64,000 nucleotides of DNA from Vicinamibacterales bacterium (GCA_965203525.1 OZ241898.1:1984176-2048175); one strand, 5' to 3'. Shown: positions 31,443 to 42,436, counted from the stretch's first letter. Numbers and translations: made by a program. The notes: generated by a model not told the origin, from the sequence alone.

Positions 31443-33833
31443 ATGACGAGCACGGGTGGCCGCGCCCGGGGCCTCCTCCGCCGGACGCTTGGACGGCAGC
31501 CCGCGGTGTCGCTGGCGACCACGGCGGCGCTGATCGCCGGAATCGGCGTCGCAGCGGCGGTTGCCGGCTTTCTCGACTCGTTGAACACACCGCCGCGCTG
31601 GACGGCGCGCGTGCCGGACCCGAACATGCTGGTTCGTGTGTCGCCGGTGCGGAACTACGGGTCGTACACGGCGATCGGCCCGCGCCTCCGAACCCTCGAC
31701 GTCGCCGTGTACCGGCGCGTCACGGCCGGCACCGGCCGCGGGCCCTTCGCGGCGCCGCTGCAACTGGAGTGCGTCAGCCCGGCATACCTGGCGCTGCTCG
31801 GCGTGCGGCCGTTCGCCGGGCGGGACTTCGATGCCCGGGACGACGTCGAGGGCGGGCCGCCGACCGTGGTGCTGGCGCATCACTTCTGGATGCGTCGGTT
31901 CGGGGGCGATCCCGCCGTGCTCGGCACCATGATGCAGGTCGACGATCGGCTGCACACGATCATCGGCGTCGGCCCCCCGGACTTCGGAGGCGTGAACTCG
32001 CCGCCGGCCGACGCGTGGACGCTGTTGGCGGCCTCTCCGAATTTCTGCGACGCGTCGGGGCGGCCGATCCTCGACCAGGGCGCGTGGCTGCAAACCGTCG
32101 GCCGCGTGCGGCCGGGATTCACGGTGGCGCACGCCGACGCCGAGGTGGCGGCGCTGTTCGCGGCCGACGCGGAGTCGGCGCGGAGGCTCGGCCGCGGAGT
32201 CGTGGAGCCGTTGTACGGCAGGCGCGCCGCCCACGGGTCGCCCGCGGGGCGGGTCGGCCGGTTCCTGGCCGCGGGTGTCGTGTTCATGCTGCTGGCGGTG
32301 TGCGTGAACGTCTCGCTGGTGCGCTCGCTGCACGTGGCGGACTGCCGGGACGCCCTCGCCGTTCGACGTCTACTCGGGGCGACGCGTCTGCGCCTGGGCT
32401 GGGTGCTGTGGGTCGAAACGCTGCTTCTGGCCGCCGCGTGCGTGCCGCCGGCGGCGATCGTCGCGCTGTGGACCGCGTGGACGCTGGAGGCGTTCTTCCC
32501 GATCGGATCCGTGGAGGCGGTACTGAGCCCGAGGGGCCTTGCGGCGCTGACGGCCATCGCACTGGCCGTCGGAGGCCTCGGCGGCGCGGCCCCGGCCGTG
32601 GCCGGCGCCCGTACGGCGTTGCGGTCCGCCTGGGGAACAAGCATGCCGGCCGGGACGCGGCCGTCGCTCGGCCGCGATGCGCTGCTGGTGAGCCAAGTGG
32701 CGGTAGCCCTGGTCCTGATCATGGTGGCGCAGCTCTTCGTGCGCAGCACGTCCGAGATCCGGCGGGGACTCGGTTTCGACCTCGACGGCGTCGCCGTGCT
32801 CACCGCCGACCTCGAACGCGCCGGATTCGGGAGCGCGGACAGGCTGTCCACGTTCCACCTCCTGGCGGAGCGGGTGGTCCGCCTCCCGCACGTCGAGGCG
32901 GCGGCGATCGCGTCGCAATCGCTGCTGGATCCTGACGACTCGCACCTGATGCTGGGAGTGACGGCGCCGGGCTCGTTCGGAAGCGTCGTCATGTCGACGT
33001 TCAACGCGGTGTCACCGCCCTACTTCGACGTGGTCGGCACCCGCCTCGTGCGGGGGCGGGCGTTCACCCGGGAGGATGCGGCCGGCAGCCGGCCCGTGAT
33101 GATCGTCAGCGACAGTCTGGCCCGACGCCTCTGGCCGGGCCGCGACGCGACCGGCCTCTGTGCGTTCGTCGGTAACGCGGGCTGCGTGGACGTCGTCGGC
33201 GTCAGCGAGTCCCGCCGGCCTGGAGCGGTGCGGTACCACGAGGAAGAGTTCTTCGTGCCCCTGGCGCAAGCGTCCCGCTACGGATATGGACGTGGATACG
33301 CCCGCGCGCTCTTCGTTCGCCCGAAGGATGCCGGGGACGAGAGCCTGGCCGCCATCGCCGCCGCCGTTCGCGGCGCGGTTCCCGATCTGCCGTTCGTGTC
33401 AGTGGCGCGTCTGTCCGACAGGGCCGACGCCGAGATGCGCTCCTGGCGCCTCGGGATCCGCATGTTCGGTCTGTTCGGAGGCGTCGCCGTGCTGCTGGCC
33501 GGCATCGGGGTCTACGGATCGCTGGCAGGCGCCGTGCGCCGGCGCACACCGGAAATCGCCGTCCGGATGGCGCTCGGCGCCCGGCCCGCGGACATCGTGC
33601 GATTGATGCTGCGCCGCAACGCGATGGTGCTCGCGGCGGGCATGGCGCTCGGCGGCGCCGCGCTTCTCGTCGTCGCTCCGCTGCTGCGTGCGCGGCTGTT
33701 CGGCGTGGTCCCGACCGACGGACCGTCGCTTGCCGCCGCCTGCGGCGCGGTCGCCGTCAGCGTATCGCTGGCGGTCGCCGCCCCGATCGCGCGGGCGGTG
33801 CGCGTGGATCCGATGGCGGCGCTTCGACGTTGA
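31443..33833 (+). CDS. ADOP-family duplicated ABC-type permease (MacB/FtsX-like, two FtsX domains)
   Basis: 796 aa with an N-terminal TM, a large periplasmic domain and an FtsX 4-TM bundle, twice. The C-terminal ...VRVDPMAALRR is typical of the FtsX/MacB family. No ATPase gene is adjacent. Confidence 0.8.
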   Translation: MTSTGGRARGLLRRTLGRQPAVSLATTAALIAGIGVAAAVAGFLDSLNTPPRWTARVPDPNMLVRVSPVRNYGSYTAIGPRLRTLDVAVYRRVTAGTGRGPFAAPLQLECVSPAYLALLGVRPFAGRDFDARDDVEGGPPTVVLAHHFWMRRFGGDPAVLGTMMQVDDRLHTIIGVGPPDFGGVNSPPADAWTLLAASPNFCDASGRPILDQGAWLQTVGRVRPGFTVAHADAEVAALFAADAESARRLGRGVVEPLYGRRAAHGSPAGRVGRFLAAGVVFMLLAVCVNVSLVRSLHVADCRDALAVRRLLGATRLRLGWVLWVETLLLAAACVPPAAIVALWTAWTLEAFFPIGSVEAVLSPRGLAALTAIALAVGGLGGAAPAVAGARTALRSAWGTSMPAGTRPSLGRDALLVSQVAVALVLIMVAQLFVRSTSEIRRGLGFDLDGVAVLTADLERAGFGSADRLSTFHLLAERVVRLPHVEAAAIASQSLLDPDDSHLMLGVTAPGSFGSVVMSTFNAVSPPYFDVVGTRLVRGRAFTREDAAGSRPVMIVSDSLARRLWPGRDATGLCAFVGNAGCVDVVGVSESRRPGAVRYHEEEFFVPLAQASRYGYGRGYARALFVRPKDAGDESLAAIAAAVRGAVPDLPFVSVARLSDRADAEMRSWRLGIRMFGLFGGVAVLLAGIGVYGSLAGAVRRRTPEIAVRMALGARPADIVRLMLRRNAMVLAAGMALGGAALLVVAPLLRARLFGVVPTDGPSLAAACGAVAVSVSLAVAAPIARAVRVDPMAALRR

Positions 33834-33858
33834 TCCCGAACGGAGAGAGGAGGCGACG

Positions 33859-34011
33859 ATGCGGATCGTTCAGGCGCGGGCGCTCATGGTCGGAAGCTGC
33901 CTGGCGGCGACCGCCTGCATGGATGACATGGAACCGGAAACGGATTCGAACCCGCGCCCCGAGTCTTTCGCTGTCGCTCGCCTTCTGAGCGCGGCGTTCA
34001 CGATCCCATGA
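33859..34011 (+). CDS. Possible small lipoprotein (50 aa)
   Basis: A strong RBS (GAGAGGAGG) lies 6 nt before the ATG, with a signal-like MRIVQARALMVGSCLAATAC. It overlaps the 3' end of the convergent small gene by 14 nt. Confidence 0.3.
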   Translation: MRIVQARALMVGSCLAATACMDDMEPETDSNPRPESFAVARLLSAAFTIP

Positions 34012-34258
34012 AGCCGTCGCGCTGTCCCGGAAGATCGCGCCGTAGCGAACCTTCAAGCTGACCTACGGATCGGTTGAGGTCCTTGATGTCGGCGTTGACA
34101 ACCTTGAAGCCGTCGTCAACCTTGTCTTCGACCTTGCCGATGTTCTTGCCGATCTCCTTGTGTGCGTCACGGTTGACGTTGTTGAAGTGAATCAACAACG
34201 GAATCAGCACACCAAGAATCGGAACCACGATGGCCAAAACCATCTGCCAGTCTTCCAT
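33998..34258 (-). CDS. Small membrane-anchored coiled-coil protein, paralog A (86 aa)
   Basis: An N-terminal TM (VLAIVVPILGVLIPLLIHF) is followed by NNVNRDAHKEIGKNIGKVEDKVDDGFKVVNADIKDLNRSVGQLEGSLR, which is shared almost verbatim with paralog B. GGAGG lies upstream. It is AT-richer than its surroundings. Confidence 0.7.
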   Translation of the reverse strand: MEDWQMVLAIVVPILGVLIPLLIHFNNVNRDAHKEIGKNIGKVEDKVDDGFKVVNADIKDLNRSVGQLEGSLRRDLPGQRDGFMGS

Positions 34259-34370
34259 CTTGCTTCCTCCCCGATCCGAAGTCTACCGGAACCGGAACAG
34301 GATCGCAATCCCCCGGTTCCGGTTCCGAACCGATCATTGTTGTTGAAGGTGCAAATCATCGGTTCCAGGG

Positions 34371-34700
34371 TCAATCCTGGCCACCCTCAGACGGTCGCGG
34401 GATCGGCCGTAGCGAACCTTCAAGCTGACCTACGGATCGGTTGAGGTCCTTGATGTCGGCGTTGACAACCTTGAAGCCGTCGTCAACCTTGTCTTCGACC
34501 CTTTTGATGTTCTCACCGATCTTTTTTTCGACACCTTTGATGTTCTCGCCGATCTCCTTGTGTGCGGCGCGGTTGTCGGCCCTGGACGCCATCCACGTCG
34601 CAAGGATCACGCCGAGAAGGACGGCGCCTACACCCATGATTGCCCAGACATCCGCAGTCATTCCGCCGACTTCCGACTGCGCCGAAGCGGGGACGGCCGA
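34371..34700 (-). pseudogene. Paralog B of the small membrane protein family, 3' portion (gene split by IS insertion)
   Basis: Reading continues in frame upstream of the internal ATG (34661) as ...PASAQSEVGG up to the IS256 boundary. It joins perfectly with the fragment at 38116-38172 once the IS and one TSD copy are removed. Confidence 0.8.
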
Positions 34701-36147
34701 GAGGTATTGTCAAAAGTTGTGGATCGGGAGTGATCAGGCGGCCTCCTTCCGAGCCTCCCTCTCCGTCCCGCCGCGCGCCGGCGGCAGGCCGTCGACGAAC
34801 TGCACGCCGGCTCGCACCAGAGGCAGCAGGTGCGCCCCGTTCAGCCGGCGCCACCGCCGTTGCGCCATGTCCAGCAGCTTGAACGCCATCAGCAGGCCCT
34901 TGGTGCGCGAACCCGCCCCCTTCGTCACACGCTGACGCAGCCGAACCGTCGAGAACGGCGATTCGATCAGATTCGTCGTCCGCAGGTGCAGCCAGTGCTC
35001 CGCCGGATACGCGAAGAACGCCAGCAGCGCCTCCCGGTCCTCCACCAGGCAGGCGGCCGCCTTCGGGTACTTCGCCCCGAACTCCTTCACGAAGGAGCCG
35101 ATCCCCTTCTCGGCGTCTGCCCGCGTCGGCGCATACATGATCTCGTGCAGCGCCCGCTTCGCCCGCGGACGCCGCCGCTTCGGCAGCTTGTCCAGCACGT
35201 TCGCCAGCTTGTGGCACCAGTCGCGTTGCGGCGTCGTCTCCGGCCACGCGTCCCGCAGCGCCGACCAGAAGCCGAGCGCGCCGTCGCCAACCGCCACCTC
35301 CGGCGCCCGCAGCCCCCGGTCGCGCAGGTTCCGCAGCATGTCCGCCCAGCTCTCGGCGCTCTCCCGATAGCCGTCCTCGATCGCCACCAGCTCCTTCGTC
35401 CCGTCCGCCTTCACCCCGATCATCACCAGCGTGCAGAGACGGTCTTCCTCCAGCCGGATGTTGAAGTGGATCCCGTCGACCCACACGTAGACGTAGTCGC
35501 ACGCCGACAGGTCCCGGTTCCGGAACGCCTGGTACTCCCGCTCCCAGGCCGCCGTCAGCCGCGAGATGTTCGTCGGACTCAGGCCCGCCGCGTCCTCGCC
35601 GAGCAGAACCGGCAGCGCCTCGCGGAAGTCGCCCGTCGACAACCCCCGCAGATACAGCACCGGCAGCACCTCGGCAACCTTCGGCGACCGACGCATGTAC
35701 GGCGGCAGAATCCGGCTCGTGAACCGCTGCCGCGTGCCGTCCTCGTCAACCCGCCGGTCGTTCACCCGCGGCGCGCGCACCTGCATCGTCCCCGCCCCGC
35801 AGGTCACCGAGCGGGGCCGCGCATGGCCGTTGCGGACGACCAGACGCCGGCCGTTCTCGTCGCGCGCGCCGGCGTGCGCGTCGAGGTACTGGTTGACCTC
35901 TTCCTCCATGGCTGTCATCAGCATGCTCCGCGCACCCTCGCGGGCGATCGCATCCAGGGTCGGCACGTCGTCCCGGACCGCGTTTCCAGCCGTCTCCAGG
36001 TTGTCTTCCCGCGTCTCGTCGTGTACCTTGCACATGGGTGGTGTCTCCTTCCCCCCGGCCCATCAGCCAGGGTGTTTCCGAGTGTTCACCTGGAAGGATA
36101 CGCCACCTGCCTCACGACCGCGATCCACAACTTTCGGTGTCTTGGGT
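34701..36147 (-). mobile_element. IS256-family insertion sequence (body); its last 9 bp lie at 38107-38115 because a second IS is inserted in its terminal repeat
   Basis: Left end is gaggtattgtcaaaagttgtggatcg. The reconstructed right end (reverse complement) is gaggtataaccgaaagttgtggatcg, giving 22/26 identity. A 9-bp direct duplication gacggccga lies at 34692-34700 and 38116-38124. Confidence 0.85.
34734..36035 (-). CDS. IS256-family (mutator-type) transposase
   Basis: 433 aa with the typical Transposase_mut pattern (...YVWVDGIHFNIR..., ...VGDGALGFW..., ...TTNLIESPFSTVRLR...). Confidence 0.9.
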   Translation of the reverse strand: MCKVHDETREDNLETAGNAVRDDVPTLDAIAREGARSMLMTAMEEEVNQYLDAHAGARDENGRRLVVRNGHARPRSVTCGAGTMQVRAPRVNDRRVDEDGTRQRFTSRILPPYMRRSPKVAEVLPVLYLRGLSTGDFREALPVLLGEDAAGLSPTNISRLTAAWEREYQAFRNRDLSACDYVYVWVDGIHFNIRLEEDRLCTLVMIGVKADGTKELVAIEDGYRESAESWADMLRNLRDRGLRAPEVAVGDGALGFWSALRDAWPETTPQRDWCHKLANVLDKLPKRRRPRAKRALHEIMYAPTRADAEKGIGSFVKEFGAKYPKAAACLVEDREALLAFFAYPAEHWLHLRTTNLIESPFSTVRLRQRVTKGAGSRTKGLLMAFKLLDMAQRRWRRLNGAHLLPLVRAGVQFVDGLPPARGGTEREARKEAA

Positions 36148-38098
36148 TACCGGGTCGGGCGAAAAAATCCACGAAAGGGTGTGCAGGTACGGCGGCCACG
36201 TGCCGATACGTGGAGTATGGCGCGCAAGAACGATGACCGGAGCGGTTCGACGGGGCCCGGACCTCAACGGGACCCCCGGGACGTGCGCATCGAACACCTC
36301 GAACGAGAAAACGCGACGCTGATCGAGGAGCGGGACCACTGGAAGCGCCGCAGCGAGCATCTGGAGAAGGAACTCGAGGCCGCCCGGCGCGCCGGACGCC
36401 GGCAGGCGGCCCCCTTCGCCAAGGACCGCCGGCAGGGAACCGGACGCCGCCCGGGGCGGCGCGCCGGCGCGGAGTACGGGAAGAAGGGAACCCGCCGGCC
36501 GCCGACCCGGGTGGACGAGACCCATGCGGCGCCCGCCCCGACGAGGTGCCCGGACTGCGGCGGCCACGTCGCCGTGGAGCGGGTGGCGGAGCAGTATCAG
36601 GAAGACGTGCCGGACGTGCGCCCGCTGGTGCGCCGCTTCGACGTCGAGGTGGGCCGTTGCGCGCAGTGCCGGCGGCGCGTGCAGGGCCGGCACCCCTTGC
36701 AGACCTCCGATGCGCTCGGCGCGGCCGGCGTGCAGTTGGGGCCGAACGTCGCCGCGCTGACCGCCGAGCTGCACACCGAGTCGGGCCTGCCGCTGGGGAA
36801 GACCGCCCGCGTGCTGCGGACCCGGTTCGGACTGCACGTGACCAAAGGCGGCCTGGTCCGACTGCTGCACCGCACGGCCGACGCGGCGGCGCCCGCGTAT
36901 GCGGCGCTGTGCGAGCAGGTCCGCCGCAGTCCGGTGGTCACGCCCGACGAGACCGGCTGGCGCGTGGACGCGGCCCGCCACTGGCTGTGGGCGTTCGCCA
37001 CCCCGGAGACGACGGTCTACTCCATCTGCGCCGGCCGCGGGTTCGCCGACGCGGCGGCGGTGCTCGGCGCCGACTTCGCGGGCGTGCTGGTGCGGGACGG
37101 ATGGGCGGCGTATCGCGGCTTCGAGCACGCGCCCCACCAGACCTGCCTGGCGCATCTGCTGCGGCGCTGCAAGGACCTGCGGACCGATCATCCCGACAGC
37201 CCCTGGGCCGCCGCCGTGCAGACGGTCCTGCAGGACGCCCTCGCCCTGCGGACCCGCTGCAACGCCGGCGGCATCGGCGAGCACGGCCTCGCGTCGGCCC
37301 GCGGACGGCTCGAAGCCCGGCTCGGCCGGCTGATCGACGCCCCGCCGCCGCTGGCCCCCGCCGAGCGCTTCGCCAGGCACCTGGCCCGCGAATTCGAGGC
37401 CGTGTTCCTCTTCCTGCGCGACCCGTCCCTCGACGCCACCAACTGGCGGGCCGAACACGCCATCCGCCCCGCGGTGGTCACCCGCAAGGTCTGCGGCGGC
37501 AACCGCACCCGGCGCGGGGCCGACACCCAACAGATCCTGGCCAGCGTCGTGCGCACCGCCCGCCAACGCCAGCTCGACCCCCGCGCCCTGTTCACCACGA
37601 TGCTCTGCGCCCCCGAACCGGTCGTGCCCGAAGCCCTCGCCCTGCCGCCGCCTGCCTGACGGAAGGCCGGCGCGGGAACCACGCATCCGCTCCGCCCGGG
37701 CCCACGCGGCCCACGCGCCCCCCGGACCGATACCCGCGGAAGCCGCGCCGACGGCAAACCCCGGCCCGCTCTCCGCCATCTCGACGCCGGGCCGGCCGCA
37801 GCCGCCGCGCCGACGACAACGCCCGCAAGCAACCCGCCGCCGGGCGGGCCGATGTCCCGCCCCCGGGACCCGGCGGCGCATCGCAATGACCTGCATGGCC
37901 GCGCCGACGGCCGGGTGCGGATGCGCTGACGGAACACCCCGCTTGCCGCACTTCCCATACGGCAGAACCCGTCCGCCAGAACGACAAAACTGTGTGCACG
38001 ACGCAGCATCGTCAGGCCGTAACTTCCCCGAACGTCCGTTCTATTTCGTCCCGTGGCCATTGGCCAAATCGGTCCCGAACGCCCGGTAACCCAAGACG
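36148..38098 (+). mobile_element. IS66-family (single-ORF, ISBst12-like) insertion sequence nested inside the IS256 right inverted repeat
   Basis: Terminal inverted repeats are (t/c)GTCTTGGGTTACCGGG at 36148-36164 and 38082-38098. An 8-bp target duplication actttcgg lies at 36140-36147 and 38099-38106. Confidence 0.8.
36217..37659 (+). CDS. IS66-family transposase
   Basis: N-terminal coiled coil (HLERENATLIEERDHWKRRSEHLEKELE), Zn-finger CPDCGG...CAQCRRR, and DDE region (PDETGWRVD, LVRDGWAAY). ATG 36217 is preceded by GGAG. Confidence 0.85.
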   Translation: MARKNDDRSGSTGPGPQRDPRDVRIEHLERENATLIEERDHWKRRSEHLEKELEAARRAGRRQAAPFAKDRRQGTGRRPGRRAGAEYGKKGTRRPPTRVDETHAAPAPTRCPDCGGHVAVERVAEQYQEDVPDVRPLVRRFDVEVGRCAQCRRRVQGRHPLQTSDALGAAGVQLGPNVAALTAELHTESGLPLGKTARVLRTRFGLHVTKGGLVRLLHRTADAAAPAYAALCEQVRRSPVVTPDETGWRVDAARHWLWAFATPETTVYSICAGRGFADAAAVLGADFAGVLVRDGWAAYRGFEHAPHQTCLAHLLRRCKDLRTDHPDSPWAAAVQTVLQDALALRTRCNAGGIGEHGLASARGRLEARLGRLIDAPPPLAPAERFARHLAREFEAVFLFLRDPSLDATNWRAEHAIRPAVVTRKVCGGNRTRRGADTQQILASVVRTARQRQLDPRALFTTMLCAPEPVVPEALALPPPA

Positions 38099-38115
38099 AC
38101 TTTCGGTTATACCTC

Positions 38116-38172
38116 GACGGCCGAACCGAACAGCACCAGCACGAACAGAACGACGTTGATCAGATTCCGCAT
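38116..38172 (-). pseudogene. Paralog B, 5' fragment (signal peptide MRNLINVVLFVLVLFGSAV) separated from its body by 3.4 kb of IS DNA
   Basis: ATG 38172 follows the conserved leader. The peptide matches the paralog C N-terminus (ALLFVLVLFGSVVPASA). It is in frame with 34691 downward after IS removal. Confidence 0.8.
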
Positions 38173-38415
38173 TTTTCTTCCTGATCCGAAGTCTACCGGA
38201 ACCGGAACAGGATCGTCAACCTCTCGGTTTTCCGATTCCGAACCGATCATTGACGGCTACGGAGATAGTCAATGATCTGTCCTATGACATCACCCGGCCG
38301 GAGTCCCTTGAAGTATTCCGTTCCGCAGCTACCTTTGGCGCTTGTCTCGTCGGTAGCTGCGCTTCGCCATCGGCTTCGTCCAAATTTCGCCTGCACCAGG
38401 AAGCGCCCGGCGGCG

Positions 38416-40183
38416 CTAGCCTGGATTATTCACCGGGGGTGCCGATCCGGGAGAGACACAAGGGCCTCCGCGCGGTAAAATCGCAGTGGCAACAGGCATT
38501 TTCACCACCACGGAGGCCCCTGCGTGACGACCGACACGATACCACAGACTGTCCTGTTCCCGGAACTGTTCGACAAGCCCCTCGTCGCCACCTTCGACCG
38601 CGAGCACGCCAGCTCCGACGGCGGAGCCGTTCTCCTCAAGGCGGCCGAGCGCGTGTACGGCCTCGTCAAGACGTTTGCCCGCTGTCTCGCCGACCGGCGC
38701 GACCCGGAGAAGATTCGGCACACGCTCGCGGAACTGGTCGGGCAGCGGATCTTCGGCATCGCGTGCGGCCACCCCGACGGCAACGATGCCGACGATCTGG
38801 CCGACGACCCCGTTCACAAGCTGCTGCTCGGACGGGACCCGGTGGCCGGCGCGCCGCTGGCGTCGCAACCGACGATCTCGCGGTTCGAGAACAGCCCGGG
38901 CCGCGGCGCGCTCTATCGCATGGCGCGGGAGTTGGCGGCGAGCGTCATCGAGCGACACCGGCGCCGGCTGGGGCGGCGGGTGCGGCGCATCACCATCGAT
39001 CTGGACCCGACCGACGACCTGACGCATGGCGCACAACAGCTTTCGTTCTTCAACGGACACTACGGCGGCTGGTGTTATCTGCCGCTGCTCGCGTTCCTGA
39101 CCTTCAACGACGAGACGGAGCAGTATCTGTGCGCGGCGGTGCTGCGGCCGGGCAATGCGGTGGCGGCCGACGGGAGCCTGGGCCTGCTGAGACGGCTGCT
39201 GCCGATGCTGCGGGCGGCGTTTCCGCGGACGTCGTTTCTCGTCCGGCTCGACGGGGGCTTTGCGACCCCGGAGGTCTTCGATTTCCTGGAGGCGGAACCG
39301 GGACTCGACTACGTGGTGGCGATGGGCAGGAACGCGGTGTTGGTGCGGCAGGCCGAATCCGCCCTGGCGGCGGCCCGCGCGCAGAGCGGGGCCAGCGGCC
39401 GAACCGAGCACGTCTATACCGACACCCGCTACGCGGCCCGCACGTGGAACCGCCAACGCCGGGTCGTGATCAAGGCCGAAGTGGTCCGGCATCCGGGCCG
39501 CGAGCCGCGGGACAATCCGCGCTTCGTCGTGACGAATCTCCCGCAGAATCCGCGCTTCGTCTACGAAAAGGTCTACTGCGCCCGCGGCGACGTCGAGAAC
39601 CGGATCAAGGAGTTGCTGGACGGTCTGCAGATCGACCGCACGAGCTGCTGCCGGTTCCTGGCGAACCAGTTGCGCGTGTTGCTGACGGCTGCCGCCTACG
39701 TGCTCATGCAGGAACTGCGGCTGCGGGCGGCGCGAACCGGCTGTGCCCGCACCCAGGTGACGTGGCTGCGCAACCGGCTGCTGAAGCTCGGCGTGCACGT
39801 CGTCGGCTCCGTGCGCCGCATCGTCCTGCATCTGCCCCGGGGGACGCCGCATCTGAACGCATGGCGGCGCATCGCGCTGGCCCTCGGCGCCCGCGCCGGG
39901 TAGTCCGAAACCCGCGCAGCCCGTAGCCCGAACCGCACCGCCCGCGACGGCGGAGCCTTGCCTGAACCCGCCTGTCCGCAACCGCCGGGCCCGCGAACGA
40001 CGCCTTCGATGACGGTTGCTCGCCCTCGGCGGTCCTGAATCCGTCTGTCCGCAACCGCCAGACCCGTGAAGGCTGTTCCACGCGTCGCGGCCCGCGCACC
40101 GACGCGTGTCCGAGACCCCGTTTCGTGGCCGAGCATGGCCCGTCGGGGCCTCATGCCCGACCTTCATGAATAATCCAGGCTAG
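38416..40183 (+). mobile_element. IS1380-family insertion sequence
   Basis: Perfect 17-bp terminal inverted repeats ctagcctggattattca (38416-38432 and 40167-40183). A 4-bp target duplication ggcg lies at 38412-38415 and 40184-40187. Confidence 0.9.
38524..39903 (+). CDS. IS1380-family transposase
   Basis: 459 aa. The N-terminal FDREHASSDGGAVLLKAAERVYGL motif and overall DDE_Tnp_1-like layout are typical of IS1380. Confidence 0.9.
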   Translation: MTTDTIPQTVLFPELFDKPLVATFDREHASSDGGAVLLKAAERVYGLVKTFARCLADRRDPEKIRHTLAELVGQRIFGIACGHPDGNDADDLADDPVHKLLLGRDPVAGAPLASQPTISRFENSPGRGALYRMARELAASVIERHRRRLGRRVRRITIDLDPTDDLTHGAQQLSFFNGHYGGWCYLPLLAFLTFNDETEQYLCAAVLRPGNAVAADGSLGLLRRLLPMLRAAFPRTSFLVRLDGGFATPEVFDFLEAEPGLDYVVAMGRNAVLVRQAESALAAARAQSGASGRTEHVYTDTRYAARTWNRQRRVVIKAEVVRHPGREPRDNPRFVVTNLPQNPRFVYEKVYCARGDVENRIKELLDGLQIDRTSCCRFLANQLRVLLTAAAYVLMQELRLRAARTGCARTQVTWLRNRLLKLGVHVVGSVRRIVLHLPRGTPHLNAWRRIALALGARAG

Positions 40184-40189
40184 GGCGTC

Positions 40190-40232
40190 GTCCGCGTCCG
40201 TCCGGTTGCGAGACTCGCGGACGGACGCGGAC
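40190..40232 (-). terminator. Perfect 15-bp-stem hairpin downstream of paralog C (candidate terminator)
   Basis: GTCCGCGTCCGTCCG (40190-40204) and CGGACGGACGCGGAC (40218-40232), 12 nt after the stop at 40244. There is no U-tract. Confidence 0.5.
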
Positions 40233-40243
40233 TCTCGCCAAGG

Positions 40244-40783
40244 TCAATCCTTGCGAGTCTCAGACGGTCGTCCGAGCCGGGCTGCTTCCGTCGCGGAGTC
40301 TCGCAGGTGGATGTTGATCTCGTCAACCTTCCCTTCGACCTTGTTGACGTCCGCCTTGAGGTTCTCTTCGACCTTGTTGATGTCCGCCTTGAGGTTCTCT
40401 TCGACCTTGTTGACGTCCGCCTTGAGGTTCTCTTCGACCTTGTTGACGTCCGCCTTGAGGTTCTCTTCGACCTTGTTGATGTCCGCCTTGAGGTTCTCTT
40501 CGACCTTGTTGATGTCCGCCTTGAGGTTCTCTTCGACCTTGTTGACGTCCGCCTTGAGGTTCCCTTCGACCCTGTTGATGTTCTCGCCGATCCCCTTGTG
40601 TGCATCACGGTTGACGTTGTTGAAGTGAATCATCAACGGAACCAGCACGCCGAGAAGGACGACACCAACACCTATGATAGCCCAGACGTCCGCAGTCGTT
40701 CCGCCGCCATCCGCTGCCGAAGCAGGAACGACCGATCCGAACAGCACCAGCACGAACAGCAGAGCCTTCGTTTTCCAGTCCAT
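40244..40783 (-). CDS. Small membrane-anchored repeat protein, paralog C (179 aa) with signal peptide, TM helix and seven 11-residue repeats
   Basis: MDWKTKALLFVLVLFGSVVPASA signal, TM VWAIIGVGVVLLGVLVPLMIHF, the shared NNVNRDAHKGIGENI block, then 7 x VEENLKAD(V/I)NK. GGGAGG lies upstream. Confidence 0.8.
   Translation of the reverse strand: MDWKTKALLFVLVLFGSVVPASAADGGGTTADVWAIIGVGVVLLGVLVPLMIHFNNVNRDAHKGIGENINRVEGNLKADVNKVEENLKADINKVEENLKADINKVEENLKADVNKVEENLKADVNKVEENLKADINKVEENLKADVNKVEGKVDEINIHLRDSATEAARLGRPSETRKD
40337..40567. repeat. Seven head-to-tail 33-bp repeats (in-frame, coding) inside paralog C
   Basis: The unit gaccttgttga(c/t)gtccgccttgaggttctcttc starts at 40337, 40370, 40403, 40436, 40469, 40502 and 40535. 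The only variable position is one c/t. Confidence 0.95.
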
Positions 40784-40907
40784 GCTTTCCTCCCTTCCCT
40801 CAGTCTACCAGAACCGTTTTGCCAGCTCTAGTCCGTTCGGTCTCCGATCGTTGGCGGCTACGGAGATAGTCAATGATCTGTCCTATGACATCCCCGAGCA
40901 GCGGCCG

Positions 40908-40982
40908 CCGGACTGGCGTCGATGACGAGCCTGCGCGCTCTGGCCGGCTTGTGACGGCTCACTCGCCCCGCGGCGCGCGGCG
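40908..40982. repeat. 'Empty-site'-like junction: a copy of the 3' end of gene 31152-31427 fused to a copy of the 3' end of tyrA
   Basis: 40908-40956 matches 31381-31429 at 46/49 positions. 40955-40982 is identical (28/28) to 41509-41536. Confidence 0.85.
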
Positions 40983-41045
40983 ACCGCCCGTTGCGCAGTC
41001 CCGCACACGCCGTCGCACAGGACGACGTCGTTCGCCCCGCGCCGT

Positions 41046-41387
41046 TCACGGCCAGTGTCCGTTCCCTCCGGCGGCGACGTCACGGACGTAGAACAGCACC
41101 GCCCCGGCAGCCAGGATCCCCCAGCCGATCGGCGCGCCGTAGTCCACGCCGAAGGAGATCCCGATCACGGGCAGGAACGCAGCCCCCACCGCCGGCCAGA
41201 AGAGGAACAGCAGCGCAGGCCGCGCCCGGAATCGTTCGCGCACGTTCCGGGGTTTCGGACGCAGGCCCTTCAGTTCGTCGCCGTCGAAGCCGAGGAGTAC
41301 GGCCGCGATCGCGCCGTGGAACAGAAAGGCGTTCAGGTTCGAGAAGGTCGTGTCCGTGACGAGTTCCGCGGTCCGCGGGTTCGCCAT
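41046..41387 (-). CDS. Small multi-pass membrane protein, unknown function
   Basis: 113 aa from ATG 41387 with two or three hydrophobic helices (FLFHGAIAAVLLGF; LLFLFWPAVGAAFLPVIGISF; IGWGILAAGAVLFYV). The start could be further upstream. Confidence 0.5.
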   Translation of the reverse strand: MANPRTAELVTDTTFSNLNAFLFHGAIAAVLLGFDGDELKGLRPKPRNVRERFRARPALLFLFWPAVGAAFLPVIGISFGVDYGAPIGWGILAAGAVLFYVRDVAAGGNGHWP

Positions 41388-41512
41388 GACGTACGCTGCG
41401 CAGGCGGCGCACGCCGCGACGTTCGTCAACAGCGTCCGCAGGGCCCGGTTCGCGCCCGCGAGCACGGACGCCGCGCGAACCAGGACCACGGCGCCGTCCG
41501 GGGCGCCGCGGC

Positions 41513-42436
41513 TCACTCGCCCCGCGGCGCGCGGCGGCGGGCGGCCAGCGCCGCCCGCCAGCGGGCCGCCGAGTCGAAGGTGCGGTCGATGGTCCCGCCG
41601 TCGGCCAGGCCGTCCCGCACCGTCCGGAGCTCGGCGATCAGCGCATCGAGCGCGGCGCCGATCTCGTCGGCGTTGGTCGCGCAGATGTCCCGCCAGATGT
41701 CGGCCGGGCTCGACGCCAGCCGCGTCGTGTCGGCCAGCCCCCGCCCGCTCAGCGCCAGGCCGTCCTCGCCGATGGCGTCGCCGACGACGCGCATCAGGGC
41801 GCTGGCGGCGAGCTGCGGCACGTGACTGAGGAACGCCAGCAGGCGGTCGTGGGCGTCCGGCGCGAGCACGTGGGGCACCGCTCCGAACCCGGCCACGAAC
41901 CGGCGCAGGCGGTCGAGCGCGTCGCCGCGGCGGTCGTCCGGCGGCGTGAACAGCCAGGGCCGGTCGCGGAACAGGTCCGGCCGCGCGTGGTCGATGCCGC
42001 TGCGCGGCGCGCCGCCGAGCGGGTGGCCGCCGACGAACGTCAGGCGGGACGGCAGCGCGCGGGCCGCCGCGACGACGTCCCGCTTCGTGCTGCCGACGTC
42101 GGTGACCACCGCGGCGCCCCGGACGTGCTCTTCCAGGTCGGCGAGCAGCGCCAGGTTGGCGCGGACCGGGGCGGCCAGCACGACCAGGTCCGCCTCGGCC
42201 AGCACCACCGGGTCGTCCGCCGCGACGTCGATGGCGTGCCGCAGCATCGCGCGCTCGAGCACCGGTTTGTCGTCGACGCCGATCACCAGGCCGGCCGGCC
42301 ACGTCTGCCGCGCGGCAAGGGCCACCGATCCGCCGATCAGGCCGAGTCCGACGACCGCCACCCGCTCGAACACCGGCGGCTCCGGCGCGGCGGCTCCCGG
42401 CTGGATGACCGGCAGGACGCGGGGCGTGTCCGTCAT
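41513..42436 (-). CDS. tyrA: Prephenate dehydrogenase
   Basis: Rossmann fold [16 protein letters not shown] and the GGHPLGG motif. ATG 42436 overlaps the upstream stop (ATGA). Confidence 0.9.

Follow-up and report, generated by a model that had tools for sequence, protein, structure and literature searches.

The Bdr proteins of Borrelia are encoded on the cp32 prophage plasmids of these spirochaetes (PMC3303823, PMC10016077); each bdr gene has its own promoter, the proteins have no known function (PMC10016077), and bdrT carries about nine repeats in one strain versus about six in another (PMC3303823). The phage Mu protein gp25, a releasin of the DUF2730 family, is a membrane-tethered cytoplasmic protein needed for release of a signal-arrest-release (SAR) endolysin; it has an N-out/C-in topology with an anionic cytoplasmic domain, and a gene of this type is expected within a few genes of the endolysin in Mu-like transposable phages and prophages (PMC9239132). 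DUF948 is the domain by which homologues of FacZ are traced, and FacZ of Staphylococcus aureus is an interaction partner of GpsB that keeps the division site from being misplaced (PMC10914604). Finally, group-3 proteins of the late embryogenesis abundant (LEA) type are built on the 11-mer consensus PhiPhi-Omega-X-Phi-Psi-Omega-Psi-Phi-X-Omega (PMC10295645). Here we describe three small genes, A, B and C, that lie on the minus strand of a 64-kb stretch of DNA (the window; GCA_965203525.1 OZ241898.1:1984176-2048175) from a Vicinamibacterales bacterium whose genome is a single contig of 5.34 Mb with 71.7% G+C. Coiled-coil rods that are anchored in the membrane and vary in length are a recurring kind of protein, and the products of A, B and C are, by prediction, an unnamed variant of it.

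A first-pass annotation, made from the window sequence alone, had described three paralogous minus-strand genes that share a modular layout of an optional leader, one transmembrane (TM) helix, a conserved block and repeats. Open reading frame (ORF) calls agreed with this layout and placed A and C where they had been reported, with B split by an insertion sequence (IS). The parts of the three genes and their flanking signals were as follows:

33998-34258, minus strand: gene A, 86 amino acids (aa), a leaderless paralog with a TM helix, the NNVNRDAHKEIGKNI block and the module-b tail VEDKVDDGFKVVNADIKDLNRSVGQLEGSLR.
38116-38172, minus strand: 5' part of gene B, its first 19 codons MRNLINVVLFVLVLFGSAV; the last 9 nt (38116-38124) are copy 2 of the target duplication.
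34371-34691, minus strand: 3' part of gene B, from PASAQSEVGG... through the stop codon.
40244-40783, minus strand: gene C, 179 aa, with a Sec-type leader MDWKTKALLFVLVLFGSVVPASA, a TM helix, the NNVNRDAHKGIGENI block, the repeat rod and the tail VEGKVDEINIHLRDSATEAARLGRPSETRKD.
40340-40570, minus strand: seven tandem 33-bp units in C, encoding VE(E/G)NLKAD(V/I)NK, from a unit-by-unit listing.
34280-34308, minus strand: promoter-like site of A (TTGCGA, 17 nt, TAGACT), followed by the ribosome-binding site GGGGAGGAA.
38190-38219, minus strand: promoter-like site of B (TTGACG, 18 nt, TAGACT), with 9 of 12 matches in the consensus scan.
40802-40895, minus strand: conserved 5' block of C, from GATGTCATAGGACAGATCATTGACTATCTCCGTAGCCG... 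to TAGACT (40802-40807), common to B and about ten other paralogs.
40184-40243, minus strand: downstream hairpin of C, GTCCGCGTCCGTCCG...CGGACGGACGCGGAC, kept after most paralogs.

The true junction of B joins 38172-38116 to 34691-34371 and restores a 125-aa protein; the annotation had recognized the split gene correctly and had counted the 9-bp duplication twice. The seven near-identical units that it had reported in C were recovered both by the unit-by-unit listing and by Tandem Repeats Finder (33-bp unit, 7.6 copies, 40329-40578, 96% matches). Six of the seven vary solely at one G/A position, which exchanges Val and Ile, and the first unit additionally has GGG for GAG. A and B do end in an identical segment as had been claimed, with a length of 31 aa instead of 40 (123 nt at 94% identity at the DNA level). 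The conserved block reported for all three genes is likewise present in each, B reading RADNRAAHKEIGENI instead of the NNVNRDAHK wording given for it.

The family is far larger than the three members first proposed. A protein search of the bacterium's own genome returned 48 matches, and a profile of the leader-bearing subfamily returned 28 matches, corresponding to approximately 26 loci. With the same profile, just 5 of 150 other genomes of the order matched, each with at most 4 matches, all of them weak; a survey of the phylum found matches in 7 of 201 genomes. Among 1.84 billion representative proteins, 393 clusters were matched at E <= 1e-3 and 30 at 1e-10, and none of 66 public relatives of C carries a name. 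A jackhmmer search of the stop-to-stop ORFs of the genome collected 64 ORFs in 45 neighbourhoods at E < 1e-8, the level at which superfamily members were counted, since at E of about 4e-5 the search drifted into a DUF1640-like tail-anchored protein. Included in this set is a G+C-rich sister group of the same layout, in which the TM helix is N-terminal, an (N/D)-x-x-A-H-x-x-I motif follows, in some members many times over, and repeats of various periods come next. Because HHalign links the family with this sister group through the shared A-H motif (97.3% probability, E 2e-11, centred on R-x-x-N-R-x-A-H-x-x-I-G-x-x-I), both groups are treated as one superfamily, with about 50 to 60 genes in this genome. 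In the G+C-rich clusters at 500900-512200 and 4735197-4737776 of the genome contig (G000:C1), the A-H motif itself is repeated four to eight times (e.g. LDAKNEAAHAKTEQHVRD), and their members end in a conserved ...VAFLAGRQxERD tail.

Each family copy is self-contained, comprising a promoter-like site, a ribosome-binding site, an optional Sec leader, a TM helix, a rod, a short tail and a hairpin. In the window, all three ORFs are preceded by a promoter-like TTG(A/C)(C/G)(G/A)-17/18 nt-TAGACT and then by a GGGAGGAA ribosome-binding site; of these three promoter-like sites, the consensus scan detected that of B alone (2 sites found versus 0.3 expected). The promoter-like block is kept upstream of about 15 paralogs, and the G+C-rich hairpin that follows the stop codon is conserved across paralogs. 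The three genes are AT-richer than their flanks, as had been noted (G+C of 0.54-0.59 versus about 0.72). In the called frames, G+C at third codon positions (GC3, 0.71-0.78) exceeds that at first positions (GC1), which in turn exceeds that at second positions (GC2, 0.28-0.43), GC3 being somewhat lower than the 0.88-0.96 of neighbouring genes. Since GC2 is low while GC3 is still high, the low G+C of A, B and C mostly follows from an amino-acid composition rich in Lys, Asn, Glu, Asp and Val, and AT-richness does not hold up as a sign of foreign origin. Because most of the approximately 26 loci keep open frames at synonymous divergences (dS) between paralogs of 0.4-1.0, because the promoter-like site, ribosome-binding site and hairpin are conserved, because other strains carry intact copies and because GC3 > GC1 > GC2, A, B and C are real genes. 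They are independently organized minigenes, and the expansion of the family is concentrated in this species.

The same locus was then compared in three related metagenome contigs, in which it lies in a neighbourhood of trp genes, chorismate mutase, DAHP synthase, tyrA, a 210-aa membrane protein, C, B, A and an ADOP permease:

L021: C with 3 units; one B/A hybrid gene (B head, A tail); no IS elements.
L022: C with 2 units; intact B and A; an IS1380-type element upstream of C.
L023: C with 8 units; an intact 125-aa B, and A; an IS66-type element cutting the 5' end of C.

The repeat number of C is therefore polymorphic, at 2, 3, 7 or 8 units, with orthologues of 124, 135 and 169 aa, and the length polymorphism predicted at first pass is real. 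An uninterrupted B head is present in all three contigs (B-type protein of 125-130 aa; in L021 as the B/A hybrid), and the A orthologues of L022 and L023 are intact. The locus has been repeatedly hit by IS elements. Divergence of A, B and C orthologues across strains was low, with too few differences to inform the ratio of nonsynonymous to synonymous divergence (dN/dS). The near-identical stretch of A and B serves as a recombination substrate; on the simplest reading, the B/A hybrid, which occupies 10716-11099 of L021, arose by deletion through these 123 nt, the converse being that B and A came from a duplication. Synteny with G335, a genome of the same genus, breaks off immediately after tyrA, and the small genes and this ADOP copy are without counterpart in it. 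The 210-aa protein between tyrA and C (about 41046-41680, minus strand; 9105-9737 in L021) is a conserved multi-pass membrane protein without a recorded Pfam hit, and it is missing from the syntenic position in G335.

Among the paralogs, DNA similarity between loci is mosaic (70-94%) and goes beyond the ORFs by about 110-150 nt on the upstream side and about 90-150 nt on the downstream side, and no transposon-like inverted ends or target duplications were seen around the duplicated unit. Family change proceeds along several routes, namely duplication of the whole unit of about 0.7 kb, slippage or unequal exchange of 33-bp units, recombination between paralogs and homogenization of the promoter plus leader. 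At the locus studied here, repeat polymorphism that stays in frame, paralog recombination and disruption of B by an IS are all directly visible. Broken or truncated copies are B in this window and those at 1176.7 kb and 3031.7 kb of the genome. Between paralogs, the median dN/dS was about 0.55-0.65 whichever region was taken, and the closest pairs had values of about 1.

The 5' end of the genes has a history of its own. B and C begin with a typical Sec leader, predicted to be cleaved, of the form M-x-x-K/N...LFVLVLFGSVVPASA, then A/Q; A lacks it. Between paralogs, dS in the leader region was 0.27, compared with about 1.0 in the remainder of the genes, which points to homogenization or recent spread of the 5' module. 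Together with the B/A hybrid of one strain, this value confirms recombination or the concerted evolution that had been suggested at first pass. The same leader, along with its upstream DNA, also stands in front of low-G+C orphan ORFs that are unrelated to the family and lack a Pfam hit. Since the same leader heads these unrelated ORFs, it appears to behave as a portable N-terminal module, and the 5' module is seemingly shared or grafted among different secreted proteins. The leader-bearing orphan ORFs (239-282 aa) lie at 2128240-2128959 (minus strand), 1162378-1163280 (plus strand) and 1466253-1467128 (plus strand) of the genome contig, with a leader that reads M-x-T-L-N-N-V-V-L-F-V...FGSVV and with the same promoter-like block. 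Elsewhere on that contig, at 480291-481167, two family members are transcribed away from each other, and the promoter-like region that serves both, AGTCTACCGGAACCGGAAC...GTTCCGGTTCCGGTAGACT, is symmetric and bidirectional; this arrangement accounts for the CGGAACCGGAAC/GTTCCGGTTCCG inverted repeat that is seen upstream of both A and B.

After the leader, B and C have about 10 residues, predicted to be periplasmic, and then a hydrophobic helix of about 19 residues, and A has an acidic MEDWQ start followed by the same helix. This 19-residue helix, with a Kyte-Doolittle mean of 2.2-2.7, precedes the repeats and is joined to them by a conserved juxtamembrane motif, N-x-x-A-H-x-x-I-G-x-N-I. Lys and Arg residues were counted on both flanks of the TM helix in 38 superfamily members; the mean was 2.29 on the C-terminal flank versus 1.13 on the N-terminal one, and these residues were commoner on the C-terminal flank in 28 members and rarer in 8, in several of which the script had taken the leader for the TM helix. 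The predicted topology is N-out/C-in with or without a leader, so that a tiny N-terminal end would be external and the one long repeat helix, built from 7- and 11-residue units, would be cytoplasmic.

The hydrophobic moment of the repeat region peaked at 3.67 residues per turn in C, 3.56 in B and 3.64 in A, the value for C bearing out the 11-residue periodicity noticed at first pass. Apolar repeat positions are occupied by Val, Leu or Ile at 3-4-4 or 3-4 spacing and form a narrow seam (3 of 11 residues in C), and sister copies have pure heptads (VEAKVEK) or other periods. Because the seam is narrow and beta-branched and sister copies have heptads, the repeats seem a better fit to a coiled coil than to a lipid-coating helix. 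For the B-type protein, AlphaFold2 modelled a helix at residues 2-16, a loop and a single helix at 31-116 with low confidence (predicted local distance difference test score of 59). A Foldseek search of this model against the PDB gave no match, as expected of one low-confidence helix. The C-terminal part has a net charge of -6 in C and of 0 in A and B, and the C-terminus is polar (...RPSETRKD). Family alignments showed conserved ends and a variable middle, and the tails are drawn from a few modules that are shuffled among paralogs:

Tail module: ...VEGKVDEINIxLRDSATEAxRLGRPSETRKD.
Tail module: ...VDDGFxxVNxDIKxLNRSVGxLEGxL...
Tail module: ...ESEKRLNDNINKVHGDVRLLLxHALR...
Tail module: ...NARFDDLRDYIKLA...
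Tail modules a and b: ...EINIHLRDSATEAARLGRPSETRKD and ...DIKDLNRSVGQLEGSL.

Searches of Pfam, NCBIfam, PHROG, PADLOC and the PDB matched A, B and C to no family above threshold, in keeping with the first-pass statement that the family could not be assigned; the PDB profile search returned generic coiled coils only (E >= 0.0026). DUF2730 (PF10805; cut-off 24.9 bits) scored 14.1 bits with B and 13.1 with C and did not hit A. It is the top Pfam hit of close relatives with a module-b tail (P0073, 24.9 bits; P0042, 23.9; P0039, 22.3), so that a DUF2730 relationship appears borderline for the family and lies below the cut-off for the window genes. The Pfam model covers the TM helix and the region after it. 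Features in common with Mu gp25 are a size of about 100 aa, an N-terminal TM helix, a (here predicted) N-out/C-in topology, almost no periplasmic part and, again by prediction, an acidic cytoplasmic domain, with the net charges of A, B and C given above. Unlike gp25, which has no Sec leader, the family has approximately 26 stand-alone copies, promoter-like sites of its own, tandem repeats and a Sec leader, and no Mu-like prophage or endolysin was found near A, B and C, the neighbours being the ADOP permease, tyrA, DAHP synthase, trp genes and IS elements.

With DUF948 (PF06103; cut-off 37.2 bits), A and B gave no hit at E <= 10 and C none among its best 25 hits (E <= 0.1), and one G+C-rich paralog of the genome (1962905-1963741) passed with 44.9 bits, a score that comes from the repeat region. 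FacZ is held in the membrane by its N-terminus and has a cytoplasmic part that is helical; around the window genes, no division or GpsB-like context was seen. DUF1640/CCDC90-like proteins (MCUR1, CCDC90B; PF07798; cut-off 33.5 bits), for which C scored 25.8 bits and P0005 19.5, are membrane-anchored hendecad/heptad coiled-coil rods with a C-terminal anchor and a globular head, whereas the window proteins are anchored N-terminally and have no head domain. DUF1515 reached 17.1 bits against a cut-off of 22.2, and HpsJ models (NF050014, NF050013, NF038305; PF28006) reached 27.2, 23.3 and 21.9 bits against cut-offs of 260, 140 and 60; the precomputed HpsJ Pfam tag of P0004 is marked 'faint'. Among 106 remote relatives, the Pfam hits were Apolipoprotein in 64, Baculo_PEP_C in 46, DUF1664 in 30, CCDC90-like in 26, KID repeat (Bdr) in 5, DUF2730 in 4 and DUF948 in 3.

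The KID repeat (PF02524) of Bdr was not hit by A, B or C at E <= 0.1, and the best E among the 5 matching remote relatives was 1.7e-8. The two families are alike in being multi-copy, small, inner-membrane-associated paralogs with strain-variable direct repeats (approximately 26 loci and 2, 3, 7 or 8 units here), and by this behaviour Bdr is the nearest analogue; Mu gp25 and FacZ also rank among the closest. Unlike Bdr, which is anchored by a C-terminal hydrophobic tail, the window proteins are anchored by a TM helix at the N-terminus, carry the N-x-x-A-H motif and optionally start with a Sec leader, and their genes are chromosomal and belong to an acidobacterium.

Two labels offered at first pass, LEA-like and apolipoprotein-like, are not supported. 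Apolipoprotein A1/A4/E (PF01442) scored 34.2 bits with C against a gathering cut-off of 90 and did not hit A or B; in its best rotation, VEENLKADVNK agreed with the group-3 LEA consensus at 5 of the 9 positions that it specifies, a level reached by 93% of shuffled units as well. Both kinds of protein share with the window proteins tandem 11-residue units, richness in Lys, Glu, Asp and Asn and variation in copy number. The window proteins differ in being integral membrane proteins with conserved end modules, a narrow seam and the 19-residue hydrophobic helix, whereas group-3 LEA proteins are hydrophilic and soluble, without a membrane span.

We tentatively favour, with a little less than even confidence, the reading that the window proteins are membrane-tethered cytoplasmic coiled-coil adaptors or spacers of adjustable reach; what we infer is how the proteins sit in the membrane, that they oligomerize into a rod and that they serve as tethers or adaptors. 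A coiled-coil rod is suggested by the narrow beta-branched seam and by the 3.5-3.67 residues per turn. The helices would pair or bundle into a nearly straight rod, the TM helix and the juxtamembrane motif would fix the protein in the membrane, the number of repeats would set its reach at about 1.6 nm per 11-residue unit, and the tail module would contact a hypothetical partner on the inner face of the membrane. Mu gp25 and FacZ, which are built similarly, are reported or proposed to work in this way, by means of their cytoplasmic parts. Several points weigh against this reading. Charge bias and the leader are the whole basis of the predicted topology, and the single-chain model is of low confidence and drew no Foldseek match. 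The high dN/dS between paralogs suggests weak constraint, or else imperfect alignment of the repeats. In the 45 neighbourhoods, no partner gene was conserved beside the family units; recurrent neighbours were only IS elements and multi-copy families (PQQ-type dehydrogenase-like genes and ADOP), and small ORFs within 700 nt of the units were alternative-frame artefacts only. The ADOP-permease association, which had been marked for checking at first pass, dissolved on counting, with 3 of 17 nearby versus 1.0 expected, which is not significant. Furthermore, a tether model by itself leaves approximately 26 copies in one species unexplained.

Several other explanations have to be set against a tethered adaptor. 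The repeats might instead be LEA- or apolipoprotein-like protectants, lying flat on the inner leaflet or coating it on drying, with the many strongly promoted copies providing protection in bulk to a soil bacterium. The 11-residue periodicity is real, Apolipoprotein is the top Pfam hit of C (E 2.6e-8) and recurs among the remote relatives, the near-consensus promoter-like sites would suit high expression, and LEA families are also multi-copy with a variable number of 11-mers (PMC10295645). We nevertheless regard this as unlikely, because the Apolipoprotein score stays at 34 bits against 90, the agreement with the group-3 consensus is no better than that of nearly all shuffled units, hydrophobic residues occupy 3 of 11 positions as Val, Leu or Ile with the 3-4-4 spacing typical of coiled-coil cores, sister copies have pure heptads, and conserved tail modules and a juxtamembrane motif would not be expected in a bulk coat protein. 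A role in conflict, as genes from or against phages or mobile elements (a releasin or holin type, an exclusion factor or a decoy in an arms race), would accord with the fast turnover, the single-species burst, the high dN/dS and the position of the loci in IS-rich, non-syntenic DNA. The DUF2730 hits of close relatives, the predicted topology, which is that of Mu gp25 (PMC9239132), and weak PHROG matches to weak or unannotated families only (phrog_9415, 1.5e-9, for C; phrog_404, 2e-4, for B) lean the same way, as do weak PADLOC matches to ZorA-tail and Leo models. Yet the best of the latter, ZorA with 21 bits and E 2e-5, covers the repeats of C (residues 46-164), with E 0.04 for B and none for A, and all hits to the defence library fall on the coiled-coil stretch with low scores. 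Neither the three genes nor their orthologues have a phage gene, an endolysin or an integrase next to them, and tblastn against 50,697 phage records and 72,556 plasmids gave no match. Instead of being part of a lysis cassette, each copy is equipped with a promoter-like site and a hairpin of its own, and dN/dS is uniform at about 0.6 across regions without a peak at a contact surface. A conflict role thus seems to us rather improbable.

The units could also be selfish or decaying minigenes of little or no cellular function, spread by recombination or IS events, with ORFs that persist merely as they are young. The dN/dS near 1 in the closest pairs, the near-confinement to one species, the broken or truncated copies and a moderate excess of IS1380 copies nearby (8 of 28 near family loci versus about 3 expected) would be consistent with this. 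Most frames are open at dS values of 0.4-1.0, however, conservation of the TM helix, A-H motif, hydrophobic register and tail motifs extends as far as the G+C-rich sister group, and the units are not flanked by transposon ends or target duplications; we give this explanation little credence. An equally small chance is given to the boldest proposal, that the approximately 26 self-promoted minigenes make up an undescribed diversification system. In such a system, gene conversion would keep the promoter plus leader uniform and graft it onto orphan secreted proteins, rods and tails would be shuffled and resized, the products would be membrane-tethered cytoplasmic sensors or decoys of varied reach, perhaps directed against phages or mobile elements at the inner membrane face, and the N-x-x-A-H motif would act as a signalling or oligomerization switch. 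The membrane-tethered adaptor or spacer is the reading that we prefer, at the tentative level given above.

Mobile elements interrupt B and separate C from B. Their features were as follows:

34692-34700, no strand: copy 1 of the target-site duplication TCGGCCGTC, read from the sequence; copy 2 is at 38116-38124.
34701-38115, no strand: IS256-type element with a nested IS66-type element, a 3415-bp insert interrupting B, with inverted ends GAGGTAT...
34734-36035, minus strand: IS256-type transposase, from an ORF call.
About 36138-38103: nested IS66-type element, with its transposase ORF on the plus strand, ending at 37659.
38420-40179, plus strand: IS1380-type element of 1760 bp, with its transposase at 38524-39903 and a CTAG duplication at 38416-38419 and 40180-40183.

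B is cut by the IS256-type insert, with the 9-bp duplication TCGGCCGTC on either side, and is broken in this strain because the family lies in IS-rich, flexible DNA. The IS256-type element has no second complete copy in the genome, just fragments of 109-280 bp at three other sites. The IS66-type element sits nested inside its end and is present in many further genomic copies, which match query positions 39-2004. The IS1380-type element separates C from B and sits directly after the downstream hairpin of C. With 28 genomic copies of more than 99% identity it looks currently active; it is also found at the equivalent spot beside the paralog at 1479.6 kb of the genome and occupies other positions at this locus in related strains. 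An Rfam scan of 33000-42000 at E <= 1 found no RNA family, and a search of the genome contigs with family alignments gave pattern matches, none of which was confirmed.

Small membrane proteins with expandable helical rods recur in bacteria, as in Borrelia Bdr, DUF1640, DUF2730 and DUF948, and few of them have a known role. What is noteworthy here is the scale and youth of the expansion and its shared promoter-leader module: the family is an extreme case, with approximately 26 copies essentially within one soil acidobacterial species and about 30 further relatives in the same genome. If the rods are merely low-constraint structural proteins, the expansion would be well documented yet of an ordinary, lineage-specific sort. 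At this one locus, four strain variants directly display the gain and loss of repeats, recombination between paralogs and IS hits, and together they offer a tractable system for asking what such rods do and whether their length matters, with the N-x-x-A-H-x-x-I motif as a target for mutation.

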